The notes beneath the pieces were generated by a model. That model had not been told where the DNA came from and did not search any database. It saw nothing but the letters and a program-made list of their open reading frames with translations. From the IMG/VR virus record IMGVR_UViG_3300045988_128407, positions 78,035-142,034 of that record: a stretch of DNA of 64,000 bases. One strand, given 5' to 3'. This document shows, one piece after another, positions 4,208 to 62,924 of this stretch. Source of the stretch: a virus. The translations under genes were made by a program, and so were the position numbers. How positions within the stretch are numbered: the stretch's first letter is position 1; each line of letters starts with the position of its first letter.

Positions 4208-7200
4208 CAATAATATAGATAGATATAATCCTGCTGCTAAAACCACTTACGAAGATGTGGCAAGGCAAAGAAAATTAGCCGAAGAAGAGAATTATACTCC
4301 GGCTACACTACCAGAGACGACAACGCCTCTGGTTCCTAATTATATGCCTGGTGAAGGTGTGTATGCCCAACCTAAATTTCCGGATTACGCATCAAGGATA
4401 GCTGCTGCCGAATACGAAGAACCGTATATAGCCAAGGAGATAAGCAACAGCTACTCGGAGGCACTGGCTCGTAACAGCTACAGGGGGGCTACACCTGCCC
4501 CGCCGCCTCTTAATCCCTATGGACCAAAGGTAAGTATCCGTGAAAGTCATCAGATGGGTAATGATGGGGTATGGCGTACAAAATATCCCAACTATATTCC
4601 GGGTATAAACAATGAGGATTATTATGCCAGGAGACAGAGCGGATGGAGTAAGTTTTGGAATGGTGTGGGCAAATTCGCTTTAAAGTCTGCATTGTACGGT
4701 GCTCAAGGAGTTGTGTCATTGCCTGACAAACTTATCAATATGGCATCTGAGGGAAGTTACAAAGCTGCGTTAAACACTAACATGGATAAGTTTGTAGGTG
4801 ATCTTGACCAGCAAATAGACATGCTTCTTCCCCATTATTACAAGAAAGAGGTAGAAGATTATAATTTCGGTCAGAAGCTTTTTAAGGATACCGGTAATTT
4901 CTTATGGAATGATGTCCTTGGTAACGGAATGTCTTTTACCGTAGGAGCCATGATATCAGCGTACATGACCGGAGGACTTGGAGTTGGATCATTGGGCAAT
5001 ATAGGTGCTAAATTAGGTGGAAGAATCGGAGCTAAGTTGGCAGCAAGGCAAGCCGCCAATAGGGGCATAGGAAGCCTTAAAAGCGTGTTTAACGACTATG
5101 TAAGAAAAGGAGTTGCTACCGGAAGAAATGTAGGGGAGGCGGCTAAGACCATGACGTTGTTGGCTACCAGTGCCGGATTCGAGTCATCGGTTGAAGCAAA
5201 TTCTTTTATGAAGCAATCCGAGTCTGATTTCAAGGATTATTATCGTAAGATTTATGGTCGTGATCCCAATGCAGAGGAAATGGCTGTTTTTCGTAATTCT
5301 AATGCTGATGTAGGTAGTGCTATATTTGCCGCCAATATGGGTATAGTAGGATTATCTAACTGGCTTCTTTTTGGTAAGTATATAGGGTTAGGAGGCAAAG
5401 CTATACCAGGGTTGGAAAAGAAGCTCAACAAGCATTTATTTGGATTAGGGACGGAAGTTGCGAAGCCGGGAGAGATGGCTATTAAAATAACCAATCCCAA
5501 TATAGGACAGAAGATAGCAGGCAATGTTTTCAATATCATGAAAAGACCGGTATCTGAAGGCTTATGGGAAGAAGGATCTCAAGGTGCTGTCCAGAATACG
5601 GCTGAGGAATATGTTAAGTCAAGATATGATAATGTCGCCATGAACGGAGCCGTTGATGTTCTTGATGCTATTTCTGAAGGATTTAAAAAGCAATATACGT
5701 CTAAAGAAGGATGGACTGAAATAGGAATCGGTGCTATTATCGGTTCTTTGTTCGGTATGAGGGAAGGCTTCTTTGGGTTGAAAGAGTATAGCAATAGTCA
5801 GATCTTGCTGGAAAGGCAAGTGAATGAATACAACAAAGCATCTTCTAATCTTAACATGGCGGCTTTGAATACGTTGAAAAAATCAATGAGTTTAGGGCCT
5901 CAAGTTCGTTCCGATGCCCAGTCTATGACTGGTAAGGAGCTTGATGATGCTATGTTTGAAAAGATGTCTATTGACAACCAAATGGGAACCTTAGAGGATT
6001 CGGCTGAAAATTTCCGGCAGATGATTGATATGATGCCTATTTCGGAAATAGCCGAAGCTAATGGAATGTCTTTGGAAGAGGCAAAGAAATACAAGGACTC
6101 TATTATTGATAATTATAACAATCGTCTTTCGGATTTCAGATCTGCCCAGAGTTTTGCCGAAGATCTTATAGGTGATGATTCTAAGATTGAGTTTAGGAAA
6201 TACGTGGCTCGTAATGCTTTCCTTGGTCTTCAATCGGAATCAAGAATGAAAGACATAGCTTCTGTCATAGAAACGCTTTCAGGACAGCCTCGCGTGGCAG
6301 ATGCGCTAAGTACGTTCTCCCGGCTGTCGGACAGGGCAAGGGAGCGGGCGATGGCTATCCGTGGCATACGGTCAAGAATAGAAGAACTTGAATCCGAAAT
6401 AGAAGATCTTGCTACCCGCCCTCGTAACGTAGAAGGGAAAGATCCACAAGCTGAATACATACAACGAAAAACCAAAGAATTGGAAAGTCTTAGAACCAAT
6501 TACAACAATTCGTTGTCTGAGTTATCAACGTTAATAGGAAAAGAGTTTTCGATAGAAGAGTTGGTAAGTAAAACCGAATCTGTTTTATCATCTCCTCTTT
6601 CTCCCATAAGTTCACAAGATGTGATAGAAGCCTATGATACGCTTGTGGCTTTTGATGATTATTTTAATGTAAAATCAAGACAGGAAAAGAAGTTTACAGC
6701 CAAAGACAAAGCCATGAGATCCTTGGTAAATGAATACCGAAGGAGTTTGATGGGCTATAGGAATATGAATAACTTCTTGTCCAAGATGCTTGATAAAAGA
6801 TTCTTAGCTGAGGAAAACAGGGGATTTTCAAAAGCGCTGTCTTCTCTATGGTCTACTCCTTATAAGGGGGATGATAAGGTTCCTGATTTTGCAGAGCCTA
6901 ATAAAGTTGGTGAATATGATACTGATGAGGTAGTAGATCAAGCTGTGTCAGAAGGTAAGATTTCGGAAGACGAAGCTTGGACTATCAAGGCTTTTATGCA
7001 TGCTCTTGATAAAGTAAGGGAAGATAGGATGAAGGAAGCAGAAGATGATATAAAAGAGTCACCGCTTACGGAGTCTGTATCGGATGAAGATTATGAGGCT
7101 GCTATGGATAATCCTATTATGGTTCCGGCCGTAAGGCAGTCTATAATTGATAAACTATATACAGGCAATGCCGATCTTCTTACTGCGAGAGAAAAAGATG

Positions 7201-17965: not shown

Positions 17966-18166
17966 CACATAACTTTTTTTTTGGATATGAATATAGCACA
18001 CGAATCTAAATCGAATAAAACCCCATTGTATTTAATAGGAGAGTTGATTGGCGTACCGAATACGGTTATGGACTCAGCATTGCATGAACTGAAAGATAGA
18101 ATAGACAAAGACCCTAAATGGGTGATTATATACCACTTTACACCAAAAGCGTAAAGTAATACACAT

Positions 18167-19390
18167 TTATACGGAAATTCGTACCGGGTTACACCAAAAC
18201 CCTCTACCTTCTGGTAACATCGTTACATCAAAGGATTCTTTTTCCGATTTACGGATGATGTTAAAAGCACCATTGATATCAGCATTAATTGTCTTACCAG
18301 AAGAGGTTTTAAACAATCCTCGTTTAATCCTTCTTCCTTTGTAAGATTCATGTTTGCAAATCCGTTCATTATCTAAAAAGCTACATTTTGAAGTATAAGA
18401 TTCTTCAACGATCTTAACATTAATACCTTCTAATGTAGCTTTATACGATATCATACTGATAAACGAATTAAAAGGAATAGATACAAAGTTCTGATTATTA
18501 CGCTTTCCAATATTGATCTCTTGTTTCCAGCACTTGTTATGACCGATTATGATCGTATTAATACCATTGGAAACTACATGATTAACCAATATTCTACTTG
18601 CTTTATGCAGATAGTCTTTGATCTTGTTATTCCTTTTGTCGGTTAATGACCTTATTTGTTTTGAAATCTGTTTATTGTCTTTTAACTTAGATTTTAAGAA
18701 TGCTAACCTTTTGTTATAATATTGGTTAATAGACTTTAGTGGTCTACCATTGATGATAAAACAAGAACCGGTGTTTGAAACACAAGATGCTAAATTATCC
18801 AATCCTATGTCGATGCCAAGATAGTTCCCATTATCGGACATAAGATTCTTTTCCTTCTTATTGTAAACTATTTCAAGAACAATATACCCATTCTTAGGAA
18901 TGAATCTAAGTTGTTGAATATTTTGCTTGTTAGTTCTTGTTGTAAAGGAAAACTGTTTTGGTAACTTAACAATGCCTTGTTTTATCCATTTTTGAGAAAA
19001 AGCATTTGTTGCAAAAACAGCAGGAAACAAACCACCCTTGTTGAGATACCTTGGCATTCTTACTTCCTCAGAATACTCACCTCTATTCTTTTTATTAAAG
19101 AGATTGAAGAAAGATTTAAAGTTTCTATCAACCATCATCAATACTTGTTGAGCAACCGGTGCTGGTAAAGCACGATAGTCAACATCATTTTCTGTTCTTA
19201 ACTTCTTTTCAAGAGAATAGTAGTTTAGGTACTTATACTTTACAGTATTATCATCCTTGTATTGAAAATAATACTGTCTAACAACATATAACCCTTTATT
19301 GTATAAGTTTTTACACTTATGCAATAGATCATAAAGTTCATTGTAATAAACAGAACTTGGTTTGATCGTATGTTGTTCGACTAATCTCAT
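18167..19390 (-). CDS. tnpB: TnpB / OrfB-like RuvC nuclease (IS605 family), 407 aa
   Basis: RuvC-I LGIDIGLDN, RuvC-II VEESYTSK, RuvC-III INADINGAFNI. Only a degenerate zinc finger (CSFLDNERIC). Paralogous to 31984-33174. Confidence 0.8.
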   Translation of the reverse strand: MRLVEQHTIKPSSVYYNELYDLLHKCKNLYNKGLYVVRQYYFQYKDDNTVKYKYLNYYSLEKKLRTENDVDYRALPAPVAQQVLMMVDRNFKSFFNLFNKKNRGEYSEEVRMPRYLNKGGLFPAVFATNAFSQKWIKQGIVKLPKQFSFTTRTNKQNIQQLRFIPKNGYIVLEIVYNKKEKNLMSDNGNYLGIDIGLDNLASCVSNTGSCFIINGRPLKSINQYYNKRLAFLKSKLKDNKQISKQIRSLTDKRNNKIKDYLHKASRILVNHVVSNGINTIIIGHNKCWKQEINIGKRNNQNFVSIPFNSFISMISYKATLEGINVKIVEESYTSKCSFLDNERICKHESYKGRRIKRGLFKTSSGKTINADINGAFNIIRKSEKESFDVTMLPEGRGFWCNPVRISV

Positions 19391-20250: not shown

Positions 20251-20805
20251 TGGAATTAAAAGATTCAGTCAGGGTAATGACTAAAGAAGAGTTCGAATCA
20301 GCAATCAACGAAGATATTAAATTCGTTGAAGGAATTAAGCATTTTTTTTAAACATGATGATGCTACGAGGGTAATGGAACACGTAAAGTCCGTGTTAGAG
20401 GCATCAGTAGACTACCACTACCCGAATCATCCTGAACCTGAAGCAGAACCTGGAGACATGGGAGAGGTTTCTGATGGATACCATACTTTCAATGAATTGT
20501 ATCGGTACCGCATGTTGTATAATGCCGCCTTCTTTAATCTATTAGCCAGAAACGGACAGGTTGAAGTTTGCAAATCAAGGAGACACAGCGATGGAGAAAA
20601 ATGCTTCGGTTCTGATGATTGGTTTATTGTGATGGCGATCCTACCTACCGGTCAGGTATCTAATCACTATGAAAGCAAATACTGGGATTTGTTTGATGTT
20701 CCTGAAAGAGAAACCGCTTTCGAATACGATGGCCATACACCAAATGAAGCCTCCGACAGACTTGAAAAGTATCTCAAACTGCCTCGTCGTGGCATGACAT
20801 TCTAA
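20250..20805 (+). CDS. hypothetical protein encoded in two frames joined at a T8 tract (20342-20349); would need a +1 shift, or a T7 allele
   Basis: ATG 20250 overlaps upstream stop (TAATG). That frame ends ..CAT TTT TTT TAA; the 159-aa ORF continues in the +1 frame from AAA CAT GAT. Confidence 0.35.
20342..20349 (+). repeat. T8 homopolymer at frame junction
   Basis: Counted directly in sequence. Confidence 0.9.
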
Positions 20806-20939
20806 CAGGCTTTAGAACGGCTTAAATTAGGTCGTAAGATAAAAAGAATCGATTGGGGTAAAAAGTATATCTGTATATCCGAAATAACATTAAAACAATA
20901 TAATTTCATTATAAGGTTTTAATGTACCATAAATGGTCC

Positions 20940-21136
20940 GGATATTAGCCTAAGCCTTGAAACGAAGGCTACGTTATTTGAGAATAGATAGTTACCTACG
21001 GATGTTTGCCCAAGTCCGTAGCCCTAAGGCAAGCGATTAAACAGGAGTAGTATATTTGGTGAAACAGTGTTGCCTGCAAGTAAACCTCTTATAACATTGG
21101 CGATGGGTACTAACAGGATGAAATATTCCTGATTTA
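20940..21136 (+). ncRNA. omega-RNA-like structured non-coding element immediately upstream of the IscB remnant (copy A of a ~200-bp repeat)
   Basis: No ORF. Local hairpins GCCTT/AAGGC and CTACGGA/TCCGTAG; GGCAA/TTGCC closes a 45-nt segment; CAGGA/TCCTG near the 3' end. About 90% identical to the reverse complement of 50683-50880. Confidence 0.4.
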
Positions 21137-21167
21137 TGTTGAATAAACATTAAAAACGTTTGTAGAT

Positions 21168-21650
21168 ATGGTGTACGTACAAGACATAAATGGTAAACCG
21201 ATGATGCCAACAACGAGGCATGGTAAGGTTAGGAGACTGCTTAAAGATAAAAAGGCAGTCGTTGTGAACCTATGTCCGTTTACCATCAAATTAATGTACG
21301 TCACATCCGATTACAAACAAGAAATTGTGTTAGGCGTTGATGCTGGAACTAAGCATGTTGGTCTATCAGCTACAACGAAAAGCAAAGAACTTTACAGTAG
21401 TGAAGTGATCCTTAGAAATGATATCGTAGATCTTTTGTCTACCAGAAGGGAGCTACGAAGAGCAAGACGGAACAGGTTAAGATATAGAAAACCTCGTTTT
21501 AATAATAGAATAAAAAGCAAGCGTCCAGGATGGACAGCACCTTCGGTGAAGTACAAAATAGACGCCCATATTCGTGTTTATGATAGAGATGAGATGAAAT
21601 TGATATATAGTATAAAAAATAGTATCTTGAAAGAAATGTTTATCATATGA
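21168..21650 (+). pseudogene. iscB: truncated IscB/IsrB-family N-terminal fragment (PLMP-like motif + RuvC-I + Arg-rich bridge helix), 160 aa
   Basis: GKPMMPTTRHGKVRRLLKDKKAVVV; IVLGVDAGTKHVGLS; RRELRRARRNRLRYRKPRFNNRIKSKRPGWTAPS. ORF ends before any RuvC-II/HNH/RuvC-III region. Confidence 0.6.
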
Positions 21651-31983: not shown

Positions 31984-33174
31984 TCACAAAATATTTATTC
32001 TAACCGGATTAAACACAAATCCACTATCGATTATCTTTCCAATGAAAGAATCACCGACTACTTTTCTTGCTATTCCTATAGCTCCATTAATATCAGCATT
32101 AATTAGCTTTCCAACGGAACTTTGGAATAATCCACGTTTCTTTCTTTTCCCTAAATAGGATTCTTGTTTCTTTAGAGATTCAAAAGCAAGATGGTCAATC
32201 TTTGATGTGTAAGATTCCTCATGAGTAATTACCTCTATCCCTAAAAGATTTGCTTTGTAAACAATCTTATCAATCAATTTAGAATGAGGAATAGAAACAA
32301 AATGTTGGTTATTCCTTTTACCGATATTTATCTCGTTTTTCCATTCTTTGTTTAATCCAATGATGATTGTTCCTATATTGTTAGATTTACAAAAGTCTAC
32401 AATGTATCTACTGATTTTATGCAATTTGTCTTCTATCCAACAATTTCTAAACAAAGTAATTTTTCTTATTCTATTTGAAGTTCCCTTATTACCAACAAAA
32501 GACATCAACTTAGCTTTCTTCTTATTGTACCACTGATTTACTGATTTCATAACCCGTCCGTTTATAATGAAAGAATTAGTTTCTACATTACTAATACATG
32601 AACATAAATTATTCAATCCTAAATCAATCGAAAGAAAATTGTCTTTGTTTAAACCAAGATCAGTTTCCTTTCTTTCATAAACTACCTCTACTACATAACA
32701 TGTAGCTTGAGGGATTATTCTAACTTGTTTTAGTTCGTCTTTCTTTACATTTGTTTTGATAGGTTTGATTATATCTTTAACAAAATAAATACAATTATCA
32801 CCCTTTACCCTACAATTGCAGTTGGTGAAAACAACCATGTTTTGTTTCTTACCTTGTTTGTATGACGGAAGGTGAGGTCTATGATTTCCGTATTTAGAAG
32901 GATTCTTTTCAAAATCCTTCTTGAGTTTTATCCAGGATTTTATGTTTTTAAATACCTGTTTAATCACCTGTTGGGATACATGATTAGGTAAATTCCTGAA
33001 ATCGAATTGGTTTTCTTTGCAAAGTTTGTTTGATAAATCAAATTCCTTTAAATAGTTACCTGAAAAGATTCCTTGACGAATGTTGTAAAGAACATAATTA
33101 TATAACAAGCCGGATTTGAAGCAAATATCCTCAAACCGGTTGTCTTTAACTATATGCCTTTCAACTAATCTCAT
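31984..33174 (-). CDS. tnpB: TnpB-like RuvC nuclease paralog lacking the zinc finger; embedded in the minus-strand operon (domestication candidate)
   Basis: LSIDLGLNN, THEESYTSK and INADINGAIGI are retained. There is no Cys between RuvC-II and RuvC-III. IIIGLNKEWKNEINIGKRNNQHFVSIP is near-identical to copy 1. Spacing to flanking genes is 7 nt and 53 nt. Confidence 0.75.
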   Translation of the reverse strand: MRLVERHIVKDNRFEDICFKSGLLYNYVLYNIRQGIFSGNYLKEFDLSNKLCKENQFDFRNLPNHVSQQVIKQVFKNIKSWIKLKKDFEKNPSKYGNHRPHLPSYKQGKKQNMVVFTNCNCRVKGDNCIYFVKDIIKPIKTNVKKDELKQVRIIPQATCYVVEVVYERKETDLGLNKDNFLSIDLGLNNLCSCISNVETNSFIINGRVMKSVNQWYNKKKAKLMSFVGNKGTSNRIRKITLFRNCWIEDKLHKISRYIVDFCKSNNIGTIIIGLNKEWKNEINIGKRNNQHFVSIPHSKLIDKIVYKANLLGIEVITHEESYTSKIDHLAFESLKKQESYLGKRKKRGLFQSSVGKLINADINGAIGIARKVVGDSFIGKIIDSGFVFNPVRINIL

Positions 33175-49093: not shown

Positions 49094-50409
49094 ATTATAA
49101 ATCTTTTAGACATTTCCTCTGTAATATCATATACAACCGTATGATCCTCTTCATTGTATGGTTTATTGATATTCAGCACTCCTTTTCTCACTTTAAACTT
49201 CTTATCTTTTCTAAGGTGATTCAACATACCTTGTTGGAACACGCAATCCGCCTTTTCAAGTGCTATACTGTCTTCTGTCCATTCTTTCAGCGTATATCCT
49301 TTGCTGCTCGTGCTTTTTGGAGAAAAGTTCATAATACGTGCATCAATCCCATACCATGCTTTAACCATTCTTCTTTCAGCTTCTAATTGAAATGCGTATG
49401 ATTCCCATATTCCCCCTGATTTAAAGTCGAGAATAACCACTTCTTCCTTCTCCACTTCTCTTACCTCCTTCTTCGGATCGCCTTTTTTAAACTGCCCTGT
49501 AGCCCTTTGATACACGGCTCCAAAATAACCTTCTTCTTTGTATTTGAATGTCATTTTAACCATCGCATCTATCGGCGTAGCTACCAAATAATCTTCTAAT
49601 GACAATATTCTTTCAATCATCATCGGCTTAACCTTATACTCCGAACAAAACTTAGCAAACTTCATAACTCTGACAATCATATCATCAAGATCATCTATGC
49701 TACCAAAGAATTTGTCAAGATTCTTTTTCGATATCTTCAGCTTGCCTTCTTGTACTGTTTTGATGATAAAGCTTCGATTTAAGACTATATCTCTACCTGT
49801 TAGGTACAATCCGTACATATAGTGCATGATCGTTCCCTTATCAGCTTCATACTGTGCCACCTCTTCCGGATTGCGACCAAGCATCTTCATCTCTTGCTTC
49901 CATTCCTGAAGTGCGGTCTTATCATCTACATACCCATCTTTGATTAAAGTTGTTACCGAAGCATATATCTTGGCCGTCCCATCATCCATCTTCCTTACAT
50001 AAAAACGATTATCGTCTAATGTCAATCTTACGAATTTAGGAGTCTCAATCTTCTTCAACTCATCGCAGATATAAAATGGCTCTAATGTTTCCTGATTTTC
50101 TATAAACGGATTCGAATCTTCTTCTCCAGGGTTAGGAGCGGCTTCCTCCGCCTGAGCTTCCGGTTCCTCCTTCTGGGCCTGCTCTGGCTCAGGCGCCGGC
50201 TCTTCAACTACTGGAACCTGTCCACCTCTTTCCGCTATGTCTCTGTTCTTTATTAAAGACATAACCTCCTTCTTCAACTGCTCCGGTGTTTGATTAGGAT
50301 CTGACACCGACATCACAACATCGTTCATTCTAAACAACGTATTTCCTTTTCCCTCCACCATAGGTACAAACCCTAAATCTGTCAATATTTTTATTTTCTG
50401 TTCTATCAT
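49090..50409 (-). CDS. PD-(D/E)xK nuclease-domain protein (lambda-exonuclease / YqaJ-like candidate) with acidic Pro/Glu-rich linker
   Basis: ATPIDAMV..VVILDFKSG..YAFQLEAERR. Confidence 0.35.
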   Translation of the reverse strand: MIEQKIKILTDLGFVPMVEGKGNTLFRMNDVVMSVSDPNQTPEQLKKEVMSLIKNRDIAERGGQVPVVEEPAPEPEQAQKEEPEAQAEEAAPNPGEEDSNPFIENQETLEPFYICDELKKIETPKFVRLTLDDNRFYVRKMDDGTAKIYASVTTLIKDGYVDDKTALQEWKQEMKMLGRNPEEVAQYEADKGTIMHYMYGLYLTGRDIVLNRSFIIKTVQEGKLKISKKNLDKFFGSIDDLDDMIVRVMKFAKFCSEYKVKPMMIERILSLEDYLVATPIDAMVKMTFKYKEEGYFGAVYQRATGQFKKGDPKKEVREVEKEEVVILDFKSGGIWESYAFQLEAERRMVKAWYGIDARIMNFSPKSTSSKGYTLKEWTEDSIALEKADCVFQQGMLNHLRKDKKFKVRKGVLNINKPYNEEDHTVVYDITEEMSKRFII

Positions 50410-50582
50410 CGCAATTTCTCAATTAATTCCTCTTTAACATAATACAACACAGTTACAGTCTCATCCATATCTGCGGCTGCTCCCTCAAAATCAATTTCTC
50501 TCTCACTCTCTCCTCTTTTTACGTTGGCAATGAAAATAATTTCATCGTCAGCTTCTATTGTAACCTTATATTTTTTTTTCAT
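50406..50582 (-). CDS. small acidic ORF (58 aa), stop overlaps downstream ATG (ATGA)
   Basis: MKKKYKVTIEADDEIIFIANVKRGESEREIDFEGAAADMDETVTVLYYVKEELIEKLR; below track cutoff. Confidence 0.25.
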   Translation of the reverse strand: MKKKYKVTIEADDEIIFIANVKRGESEREIDFEGAAADMDETVTVLYYVKEELIEKLR

Positions 50583-50635
50583 ATCCCATATTCTATTAAA
50601 TATATTTAAAGCTATTCATCTGTTTTAATACATCC

Positions 50636-50661
50636 CCTCGGAGACCTTTCGGTCTCCGAGG
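50636..50661. other. perfect 11-bp stem / 4-nt loop hairpin (CCTCGGAGACC tttc GGTCTCCGAGG) next to repeat copy B
   Basis: Read directly; no adjacent T-run on either strand. Confidence 0.8.
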
Positions 50662-50682
50662 TAGATGTAAATCCCGTTAGGG

Positions 50683-50880
50683 ATAAGTCAGGAATATTTC
50701 ATCCTGTTAGTACCCATCGCCAATGTTATAAGAGGTTTTATATAATGGCAACACTGTTTCGTCAAATACACTACTCCTGTTTAACCACCATTCTTAGAGC
50801 TACGAACTTGGGTAAACATCCGTAGGTAACTATCTATTCTCAAATAACGTAGCCTTTGTTTCAAGGCTTAGGCTAATAAC
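50683..50880 (-). ncRNA. orphan second copy (inverted) of the omega-RNA-like ~200-bp element
   Basis: About 90% identical to the reverse complement of 20940-21136. The copies differ in blocks, and this copy uses an alternative helix pair AATGG/CCATT. No nuclease ORF is adjacent. Confidence 0.35.
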
Positions 50881-50936
50881 CCGATCTCTGAAAGAGATGT
50901 ATTAAACTTTTATAATAGAATTATATCAGGTTAATA

Positions 50937-51458
50937 CTATTTGGGGTTATATCTGTCAATTATTTCAATAATCAACCTACCTCTTTCTTTGATCATTCCC
51001 CTGCTTTCCATATCCAGTACCTTCTTTACCGCATACTTCCATACAAAAGGAAATTCTGTTTCAAGTTTATCAAATTCCATCCGGTCAAGATACATGTCGA
51101 ATACCGTATGCTCCGATTCATGAAGGAAAACTATATTATCCCTGCAAGTAGCAACCGACTTATATATCCTTTTCGGAAGTATGTGACAGACGTTACATAC
51201 TGTAGGAAAATGAATAGCCTTACCAGTCATAGACATTCGAATAGTACTCAACTCCTCCAACATAAGACGAAAAAACCCGGATAAATCCGGGTTCTCTAAC
51301 TTTTTCTTCTTGCTGCTGTTTTTAATGGATGTAATTCTGTTTTTTTTCTTCGGAGTCAACTCTTTGCTCCTGCAAGCCTGGCATAAGCCATGACTTCTTA
51401 TCATCACTTTTCGTCCGCATCGTTCGCAGACGTATAGCTTCTTTTCCTTGCTTTCCAT
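50937..51458 (-). CDS. zinc-ribbon protein with possible HNH-like motif (173 aa)
   Basis: CERCG..CQAC; CNVCH..NIVFLHESEH. Confidence 0.3.
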   Translation of the reverse strand: MESKEKKLYVCERCGRKVMIRSHGLCQACRSKELTPKKKNRITSIKNSSKKKKLENPDLSGFFRLMLEELSTIRMSMTGKAIHFPTVCNVCHILPKRIYKSVATCRDNIVFLHESEHTVFDMYLDRMEFDKLETEFPFVWKYAVKKVLDMESRGMIKERGRLIIEIIDRYNPK

Positions 51459-52114: not shown

Positions 52115-52387
52115 TTAATTAGTTGATTTCTTTCCTTTCTCTATACTGTTTTTAAATCTTTCAGAACACCACTGCAAAACATCCATCATCATCATCTCAT
52201 TATTAGATAAGATGCCTTTTATAATTAATGCCAATTGATGTTGTGACATTCTTAGGCTCATATCAAATCTTCTTTCCTCTTCATTTACTATCGTAGCTAC
52301 GAAATACTTACACCCCTCTAAGTGCGTTAGGGCTTCAATCATAGCTTCTTTTATCTCTTTTTCTTCCATTCTGTTTTTTTCGGACAA
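52115..52387 (-). CDS. hypothetical protein (90 aa)
   Basis: ORF in packed operon. Confidence 0.3.
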   Translation of the reverse strand: MSEKNRMEEKEIKEAMIEALTHLEGCKYFVATIVNEEERRFDMSLRMSQHQLALIIKGILSNNEMMMMDVLQWCSERFKNSIEKGKKSTN

Positions 52388-62220: not shown

Positions 62221-62579
62221 AACCGACATGCCAAAACCCAAAACTTAATTTGATGAATAAAATAGATTAACAAAAATACTATTCTAATTGGCGATTATAT
62301 ACTATTTTACACCATACATGTTGTAAAACATACATATGTTATTTAATTTCATATTCTTCTTTTCTAACTTTGTTTTACTCAATCGAATCAATAAGTCCCT
62401 TGTTTCGGACAAGACGGTTGAGTAAAAGAGGTCTTTGATATAAGGTTCCATCTTGAAAACGTAAGATGGGTAAAATCAAAAACGTTTTTGGTAAAAGAAT
62501 CCGGCGATCTCACTTTTGAGCAACCGGTAGAGGGTATTGGTGATACCCAGTATGATACTTCGTACAAATGTATATTGTT

Positions 62580-62924
62580 TTACGCTTTTGTGTAAAGTGG
62601 TATATAATCACCTTCTAACTCTTTTATAATATCTTTCACGATATTCAGCCTTACCTCCTTCGTTTCTGGACTAATACAACCAAACCACCCATAAAACGTT
62701 CTTGTTTCCTCTGGTTCTGTGGCCATACTTATCTTCTCCTCCAATTCCGGGAAATATATTCTCACCATTTCGTCTGAACGAAACCCATAGATATTTTTAT
62801 GTTTTTTGAAATACATAAACACTACATTTCTTAACGCAACACATATGTATTCCCCATCCTCTTGCCTATCAATCATCCCATATACCTTTTTCCATATGAA
62901 TAATCGCTCTTCTTTTGTAAACAT
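62580..62924 (-). CDS. hypothetical protein (114 aa)
   Basis: ORF. Confidence 0.35.
   Translation of the reverse strand: MFTKEERLFIWKKVYGMIDRQEDGEYICVALRNVVFMYFKKHKNIYGFRSDEMVRIYFPELEEKISMATEPEETRTFYGWFGCISPETKEVRLNIVKDIIKELEGDYIPLYTKA

Follow-up and report, generated by a model that had tools for sequence, protein, structure and literature searches.

Element B and its insertion site

The DNA analysed here is a 64,000-nucleotide (nt) stretch (positions 78,035 to 142,034) of the IMG/VR virus record IMGVR_UViG_3300045988_128407, referred to below as the window. It carries two elements with IscB-type omega-RNAs in inverted orientation, A on the plus strand and B on the minus strand, whose parts are listed in Table 1. 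We found B to be a complete, non-autonomous transposon of the IS200/IS605 superfamily, ISC branch, in which the omega-RNA and both transposon ends have been kept. A sequence-only reading of the window had proposed that B is omega-RNA-like and nuclease-less, either a miniature IS200/605-type derivative or a stand-alone RNA. This is supported by its score against the Rfam HEARO model (RF02033, the IscB omega-RNA), by its being a discrete insertion, and by its recurrence elsewhere. In the Infernal search both copies exceeded the gathering score of 83, with 95.9 bits for B and 95.5 bits for A.

The closely related human gut phage csAssE-Sib (OR575929.1, 151 kb) is 76-98% identical to the window on the two sides of B (98% on the right flank) and does not have B; there, NinG directly overlaps the gene that comes next. 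On the minus strand the empty site of csAssE-Sib reads ...GAAATAATTGACAGAT/ATGAGAAAAC, where the slash marks the insertion point, and the filled site of the window is ...GAAATAATTGACAGAT followed by the element (ATAACCCC...ATATGGGAT) and then by ATGAAAAAAA. B is thus inserted precisely after ...GACAGAT and before the ATG that starts the next gene. The boundary of B is ambiguous by up to 5 nt. An alignment of many members fixes the element start at ATAWCC (ATAACCYC in the family), where the HEARO model begins as well, and because the start is fixed in this way we place the element at 50950-50583 (368 bp). Its other end is found 37 nt past the point where the iscB stop codon would be, like that of full-length elements. 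No target-site duplication was found in the comparisons of empty and filled sites, made with csAssE-Sib for B and with the window for the L007-type insertion described below. The AT present at both junctions is not a duplication: it belongs to the constant element start (AT...) on one side and to the target (ATG) on the other.

Table 1. Positions of elements A and B, of their parts, and of empty insertion sites in the window
Feature	Position	Strand	Evidence or remark
Element B, whole omega-RNA-only (nuclease-less) ISC/IS605-type insertion	50583..50950	-	368 bp; absent from csAssE-Sib
HEARO (RF02033, IscB omega-RNA) match in B	50706..50950	-	cmscan 95.9 bits against gathering score 83, E = 2.3e-18, model 1-211 of 211
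Small 3'-terminal omega-RNA hairpin, AUCCC-UAAC-GGGAU	50671..50684	-	same place as AUGUU-GAAUA-AACAU of IscB-linked copies
Large terminator-like hairpin replacing the iscB reading frame	50630..50668	-	11-bp perfect core, 50636-50661
Remnant of the iscB 3' coding end, ATGTATTAAAACAG, about 13 nt	50620..50633	-	BLASTN match to the last iscB codons
Far transposon end, ATGAATAGCTTTAAATATATTTAATAGAATATGGGAT, 37 nt	50583..50619	-	similar 36-37 nt in several full-length elements
Predicted guide, GAAAUAAUUGACAGAU, the 16 nt of NinG coding sequence that immediately precede the scaffold	50951..50966	-	known IscB omega-RNA layout
Target-adjacent motif / insertion target ATGAAA, start codon of the 58-aa reading frame (50406-50582)	50577..50582	-	
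Element A, decayed autonomous copy: omega-RNA and first 137 iscB codons	20875..21578	+	HEARO 95.5 bits
Omega-RNA of A	20875..21150	+	HEARO match 20875-21114, terminal hairpin 21136-21150
Truncated IscB reading frame, 160 aa, RRXRR domain only	21168..21650	+	Pfam PF14239, profile 1-147 of 174, E = 7e-45
Empty site for the L007-type insertion (commonest, 26 copies)	40736..40790	-	...GATCAGTGTT/ATGGAATTG, junction 40766/40765
Second empty site, ...AATAATGAG/ATGATGATGATGGATGTT	52157..52220	-	both L130 flanks match; inside 90-aa reading frame 52115-52387

B had been described as strictly intergenic, which is not the case: the NinG-like open reading frame (ORF; 50937-51458) terminates four codons within the element. 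The perfect 11-bp hairpin at 50636-50661 is present, as had been noted; however, it does not follow B but is an internal part of it, standing in the place of the iscB ORF. The 1.2-kb iscB gene is replaced in B by a segment of about 50 nt that forms this strong hairpin. Compared with full-length elements, the near end and omega-RNA of B are 88% identical and the last iscB codons with the far end 85%; by BLASTN, positions 331-370 of the B extract match the last iscB codons and far end of three relatives (L013, L061 and L027) at 80-85% identity. A 36-37-nt stretch like the far end of B was found between the iscB stop codon and the next ATG in L013, L008, L038 and L054, while the remaining full-length elements have different or longer sequence 3' of the iscB stop. 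No ORF for IscB (RRXRR plus HNH) lies directly 3' of B; an unrelated 58-aa ORF is found downstream of its far end.

Structure and conservation of the RNA

Helix P1 of B is formed between 50944-50950 (AUAACCC) and 50876-50882 (GGGUUAU) with all seven pairs made, and at least nine fully paired sequence variants of this 7-bp helix occur in the family. The RNAalifold consensus of 29 representative sequences was 98.5% paired. Covariation among these homologs was strong, in line with the earlier view of a structured RNA: 19 of the 47 pairs have changed on both sides, a number reached by none of 500 shuffles, and controls with slid partners gave 1-4. P1 and the terminal hairpin, whose columns MAFFT offsets between classes, were scored sequence by sequence and likewise showed compensated changes.

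It has been reported that the omega-RNA reaches 3' beyond the Rfam model (Meers et al. 2023, bioRxiv 10.1101/2023.03.14.532601). In this outer part the copies without a nuclease gene, called orphans here, are set apart. The stem ATCCC/GGGAT was found in 71 of 72 distinct orphan sequences, and of 61 distinct IscB-linked sequences, 60 have ATGTT/AACAT there; relative to AUGUU-GAAUA-AACAU, all of the inner three pairs of the small 3' hairpin of B are exchanged. The ATCCC/GGGAT hairpin is common to all orphan subtypes and never occurs in IscB-linked copies. HEARO scores overlap between the two groups (88.8-110.7 bits for orphans, 92.3-103.3 bits for IscB-linked copies), and judged in this way the RNA scaffold of B is as intact as the scaffolds that stand beside full-length IscB genes.

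The large hairpin occupies 50630-50668 of the RNA strand, and the 82-nt segment around it has a folding energy of -37.9 kcal/mol (z = -7.3). Its sequence has no BLAST match in full-length elements. In the other two orphan subtypes a hairpin of different sequence, with homologous outer arms, is found at the same position. The possibilities that the hairpin remains from the 3' coding region of iscB, or that full-length elements share it, were considered and rejected, as BLAST gave no match and the last 110 nt of twelve iscB genes hold no conserved hairpin. Nor could an intrinsic terminator be identified at 50630-50668: a U-tract is missing (GGAUGUAUUAAAAC stands there instead) and the terminator scan makes no call. 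Among the orphans, UUUUU follows the hairpin in the third subtype only.

The internal hairpin of the omega-RNA (50735-50790 in B; alignment columns about 177-229) exists as discrete module variants, for example GGAGTAGTGTATTTGACGAAAC, GTTCTGGTATTCAGGAAC and GGGATTGTATTTGGGTTCC. Orphan and IscB-linked copies hold them in mosaic combinations, a sign that recombination or gene conversion has been frequent in the family.

Relationship between elements A and B

The inverted match between A and B was confirmed. Global alignment of the reverse complement of 50683-50880 with 20940-21136 (197/198 nt) gave 178 matches, 16 mismatches and 7 gap columns (88.6%), and the repeat search returned two inverted arm pairs, 20937-21074 with 50747-50884 (138 nt, 89%) and 21082-21137 with 50683-50738 (56 nt, 98%). 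The match itself therefore stands, but it does not begin at 20940 and 50880 as was thought. Homology of lower identity continues 5' for some 65 nt more and reaches 20875 and 50950; these true starts of A and B are exactly the first positions of their Rfam HEARO matches.

Two differences that the sequence-only reading had singled out as sparing the structure were recovered in the cmscan alignments. One helix changes from CTACGGA/TCCGTAG to CTACGGA/TTCGTAG, by which one G-C pair becomes G-U. The closing of a segment by different nucleotides, GGCAA/TTGCC in A and AATGG/CCATT in B, is borne out in a 9-bp HEARO helix, where GCAAGCGAU/GUUGCCUGC of A makes eight of nine pairs and AAUGGUGGU/GUUGCCAUU of B all nine, with both sides changed in three pairs. 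The differences do preserve structure, but they cannot be read as compensation following a duplication, as the same variants occur in IscB-linked copies elsewhere; the AATGG/CCATT variant of B, for instance, is present in L013. Because the helix variants of B also occur in IscB-linked copies and modules are shared mosaically, the differences between A and B are best seen as existing family diversity and recombination rather than divergence after local duplication.

The suggestion that B is a second copy of A made in this genome has to be given up. The lineage-diagnostic 3' hairpin places B in a separate omega-RNA-only lineage. A within-genome duplication was rejected on the same ground, as lineage-diagnostic features differ and each copy is closer to copies in other phages.

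That B has no nuclease gene was correctly seen, but A has no working one either, its IscB comprising residues 1-137 only. A tblastn search of the whole window with a 406-aa relative found residues 1-137 at 21168-21578 and nothing else. No HNH domain was detected by Pfam in the 160-aa ORF, whereas the full-length relative has RRXRR and HNH. In four close relatives (L115, L061, L059 and L208) a 405-406-aa IscB is present at site A, and the window is short of about 1.44 kb found there; about 31 nt of the 5' flank of A are also missing relative to L059 and csAssE-Sib. Because IscB stops at residue 137 and these two stretches are absent, we regard A as a decayed autonomous element. Rescue of the 160-aa ORF by stop-codon recoding was rejected, as similarity to IscB ceases after residue 137 and what comes after it is homologous to unrelated phage DNA in csAssE-Sib. 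Element A lies inside a gene of DUF2829 type, and the upstream ORF in the window now ends early, at 20805 (region 20805-20878). Judged from L059 and csAssE-Sib (L002:2140-2895), the original insertion point of A was an internal ATG, ...AAATATATTG/ATGGTAGAT.

Nuclease-less elements in gut-phage contigs

A 25-mer from the conserved core matched at least 118 stretches of IMG/VR gut-phage contigs, which together with MT838317 and the two copies of the window gave 121 elements. Among these 121 listed elements, 59 carry a full-length IscB, 8 a truncated one, 20 are cut by the end of the fetched stretch and 34 are without IscB. The truncated genes are thus 8 of the 67 IscB-linked copies that can be read to a stop codon among the matches listed, and their truncation lengths differ. 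The nuclease-less copies fall into three subtypes of one design, consisting of the scaffold, the small ATCCC/GGGAT hairpin, the large hairpin and the far end.

A 22-mer specific for the B subtype gave 79 matches in gut-phage contigs. In 66 complete copies of this subtype we found 19 flank combinations, upstream of about ten different genes, and elements at different sites are 89-100% identical (median 94%). The iscB gene was therefore lost before the spread to many sites, and mobility belongs to the nuclease-less form itself.

At the B site itself, 14 of the 27 contigs with the left junction share one deletion that removes most of the element. The resulting scar (L193-L198 and L200-L207; for example L197:4807-4845) has the first 18 nt of B, ATAACCCCAAATAGTATT, fused to the middle of the 58-aa gene, and the deletion corresponds to 50498-50932 of the window. 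The NinG site therefore exists in related phages in three states: empty, filled and scar. Having lost the ATG motif, the scar would resist cutting.

Outside phages, a search of 185,579 bacterial and archaeal genomes gave a single match, at 5431-6136 of a sequence labelled Vibrio olivae (L122, NZ_JBHMEP010000019.1). A full IscB element of the family (405 aa) lies on this 20-kb contig (41% G+C), which also matches further parts of the window and is probably a gut-phage contig contaminating a Vibrio assembly.

Target sites and predicted guide

The far flank begins with ATG in 18 of the 19 flank combinations (ATGG, ATGA, and ATGT once), the exception being L141 with ACG. The ATG is usually a start codon and sometimes an internal methionine codon, and complete copies of the B subtype stand almost always directly 5' of it. 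This agrees with the insertion at N/ATGA without duplication described for several ISC families (Kapitonov, Makarova and Koonin 2016, PMC4810608), and with the TTCAT motif of TnpA and GstIscB, which reads ATGAA on the opposite strand (Meers et al. 2023, bioRxiv 10.1101/2023.03.14.532601).

In the IscB omega-RNA layout the guide is the flank 5' of the scaffold (Meers et al. 2023). By analogy with this layout and from the insertion boundary, we place the putative 16-nt guide of B in the NinG coding sequence. The empty site of csAssE-Sib has 22 nt identical to the flank of B, followed by ATGAGA; in the carrier, the guide match is followed by ATAACC and not by the ATG motif. A further target in the window might have hinted at a regulatory role, but neither the guide of A nor that of B has a second perfect one there, the self flank being the only perfect match.

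The window also has empty sites for other members of the family. The flanks of the L007-type insertion are contiguous here, which gives an exact, scar-free boundary. At the L130-type site (junction at about 52186-52196) three extra ATG codons are present in the window. This phage would itself be a target for the guides of both types of insertion.

Proposed mechanism and alternatives

Taken as a whole, the data are best explained, and in our judgement rather probably so, by B being a non-autonomous, guide-only ISC element that uses IscB in trans and homes into empty sites. From the observed anatomy, the insertion polymorphism, the distribution over many sites and the guide and motif match, we infer the following course. 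A Y1 transposase (TnpA) acting in trans would integrate B at an N/ATGA-type target, and read-through from the co-oriented NinG-like gene would transcribe it. The last 16 nt of the flank would then form the 5' guide, and the two 3' hairpins would define or protect the 3' end of the RNA. IscB made elsewhere would load this RNA; it could come from an intact copy of A, as found in relatives, from a copy outside the window, or from a co-infecting phage. The complex would cut phage genomes with an uninterrupted site, that is, a guide match followed by ATGAGA as in csAssE-Sib, and recombinational repair from the carrier would copy B in, which amounts to homing. The carrier itself would escape cutting, since in it the insertion stands between the guide match and the ATG motif. 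A nuclease in trans for B seems plausible on the contigs at hand, as at least 17 of the 95 orphan-bearing contigs also hold an IscB-linked copy, at least 9 of them full-length; both are lower bounds from the fetched stretches.

Several points weigh against this explanation. B has no visible nuclease: by tblastn no intact IscB is present in the 64-kb window, whose only iscB gene is the truncated one. Among the contigs examined, none was observed to have both an intact IscB at A and a full B; contig 113377, the only one found with the window-type junction at site A, an intact IscB there and the left junction of B, belongs to the deleted lineage and retains only the 18-nt scar. The deletion shared by 14 of 27 contigs means that B is dispensable. 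The integration step would follow from target-site specificity and the literature, and a tblastn search of 1.6 Mb of fetched phage loci, with approximate IS200 and IS608 TnpA queries, found for TnpA a single weak fragment of 36 residues. This fragment (L041:2476-2583, IMGVR_UViG_3300029730_000049; IS608 TnpA, 39% identity, E = 7e-5) adjoins an IscB element and is cut off by the contig end. The expression of B, its RNA ends and its binding by IscB are predicted features. Finally, functional copies could, by gene conversion, maintain the scaffolds of orphans even if the orphans themselves were not under selection.

On such grounds B might instead be an inert relic, a functionless leftover of a selfish element, passively inherited, unused by any nuclease and heading for deletion. 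We consider this less likely, though it deserves serious weight. The lack of an intact IscB in the window with its sole iscB gene truncated, the truncation at differing lengths of 8 of the 67 readable IscB-linked copies among the matches listed, the shared deletion, and the fact that csAssE-Sib manages without the element all fit a relic well. However, no change that would disable B is present: it scores as high against HEARO as IscB-linked copies do, and both of its ends and all helices are intact. The near identity of B-subtype copies at many sites (median 94%) moreover indicates that the nuclease-less form moved recently. The roughly 90 kb of this genome beyond the window, or co-infecting phages, may supply IscB, and at least nine contigs have both an orphan and a full-length IscB. 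Another possibility, which we hold to be rather doubtful, is that the nuclease-less elements are dispersed extra guide genes for one phage-encoded IscB; some contigs do contain two or three orphans and one IscB.

Two further explanations fare worse. B could be a domesticated expression cassette whose large hairpin ends NinG transcripts and whose AT-rich 37-nt end serves as leader or promoter of the next gene. A strong hairpin directly after the RNA, the position of complete B-subtype copies almost always immediately 5' of an ATG, the T-run after the hairpin in the third subtype, and a weak sigma-70-like match on the minus strand (50628-50599, 9/12) would agree with this. But adjacency to ATG is already explained by the N/ATGA transposon target, and some insertions split genes at an internal ATG (site A in the DUF2829-like gene, and the L130 site). 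The hairpin of B is without a U-tract and a terminator call, the two genes of csAssE-Sib overlap and need no cassette, and conservation of a 270-nt structured RNA would be left unexplained; we therefore think such a role improbable. The sequence-only reading had also suggested that the inverted pair is a substrate for inversion of the 29.7-kb segment between the copies. With about 200 nt at about 89% identity, including 56 nt at 98%, in inverted orientation, the pair is long enough in principle for homologous recombination. Yet csAssE-Sib, with neither copy present, has the same gene order, orientation and spacing (about 28 kb against 29.7 kb), the copies are independent insertions from different sub-lineages, and the inverted arrangement was seen in no contig, so that this suggestion is very hard to sustain.

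If the nuclease-less elements do act as such dispersed guide genes, each insertion would provide a guide against the matching uninterrupted site, and one nuclease could home into, or destroy, rivals at several loci. [quoted passage not shown] As IscB is the transposon-borne ancestor of Cas9, the separation of guide and nuclease bears on the origin of trans-encoded guides. B is a precisely bounded natural guide-only element whose guide and ATG-initial target motif can be read directly, and the locus suggests that RNA-guided homing may shape gut-phage genomes.

Comparison with known systems

B resembles the HEARO/IscB omega-RNA (RF02033) in its full-length model match above the gathering score, in its covarying multi-helix architecture, and in having the transposon end as its 5' end. 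It differs in that a terminator-like hairpin and the far transposon end, and no IscB ORF, come after the RNA, and in the lineage-specific GC-rich stem of its 3'-terminal hairpin, which lies outside the Rfam model.

In Geobacillus stearothermophilus, the omega-RNA-only ISGst elements and the PATEs related to ISGst5 (Meers et al. 2023, bioRxiv 10.1101/2023.03.14.532601) are protein-less and proposed to be mobilised in trans, and their resident TnpA was shown to excise them; the same study found IscB elements to be co-oriented with the upstream gene. Like B, they are non-autonomous IS605-family elements that keep transposon ends, in some cases with an omega-RNA, and encode no protein, and the reverse complement of their TTCAT motif (ATGAA) is close to the ATG-initial flanks of the B family. 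Unlike B, they are found in bacterial chromosomes together with TnpA; B resides in a human gut phage with no TnpA seen nearby and has a hairpin module in place of the ORF. The ISC transposons (PMC4810608) share with B the insertion exactly 5' of ATGA-like tetranucleotides without target-site duplication, and most are non-autonomous and use Y1 transposases in trans. However, the described ones encode IscB, which B does not, and the motif of the B family is looser, mostly ATGR (fourth base A or G) and once ATGT.

The stand-alone omega-RNAs of Altae-Tran et al. (2021), as they are presented in a commentary (PMC11610941), are thought to use OMEGA nucleases elsewhere in the genome; as far as that commentary describes them, they share with B the lack of an adjacent nuclease gene. 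Phage-to-phage homing by OMEGA systems is treated as theoretical in a 2026 review (PMC13565253). The proposed behaviour of B would be similar to that of the free-standing homing endonucleases of T-even phages and to the 'transposon non-restorative homing' of that review: an allele without the insert is cut in co-infection, repair copies the insert in, and carriers are protected as the insert disrupts the site. Different from the T-even endonucleases, recognition by B would be by an RNA guide and a short motif instead of a protein, and B would spread with the guide alone, as a parasite of a nuclease from elsewhere.

In the full-text literature on IscB together with crAss-like phages or phage genomes, we found no description of this phage-borne family. 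Stand-alone omega-RNAs, omega-RNA-only IS605-family elements and N/ATGA targets have already been published, so B is a well-defined new example of them, and its conserved hairpin module in place of the ORF is a modest twist on the known elements. As the concept is published, the gain is incremental.

Neighbouring genes and other OMEGA-type elements

PHROG and Pfam searches of the ORFs neighbouring the copies yielded little. In the 58-aa gene, the number of A residues directly behind the start ATG differs between contigs, from 7 to 10 (50568-50582 on the minus strand of the window, and L116, L044 and L183). This shifts the reading frame in some contigs and could be either sequencing error or real variation.

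Two full-length TnpB genes are also present in the window, at 18167-19390 (minus strand, 407 aa) and 31984-33174 (minus strand, 396 aa), both with the Pfam OrfB_IS605 domain and a Cas12f1-like TNB domain. At least four OMEGA-type elements have therefore colonised this 64-kb stretch: two TnpB, the IscB remnant and the orphan omega-RNA. In addition, a 65-nt inverted repeat (80%) was found between 18144-18208 and 62526-62590. One arm lies over the 3' end of the first TnpB gene, which is the place of TnpB omega-RNAs, and the other is without a nearby TnpB gene; like B, this second arm may represent an orphan, either a TnpB-type omega-RNA or a transposon end.

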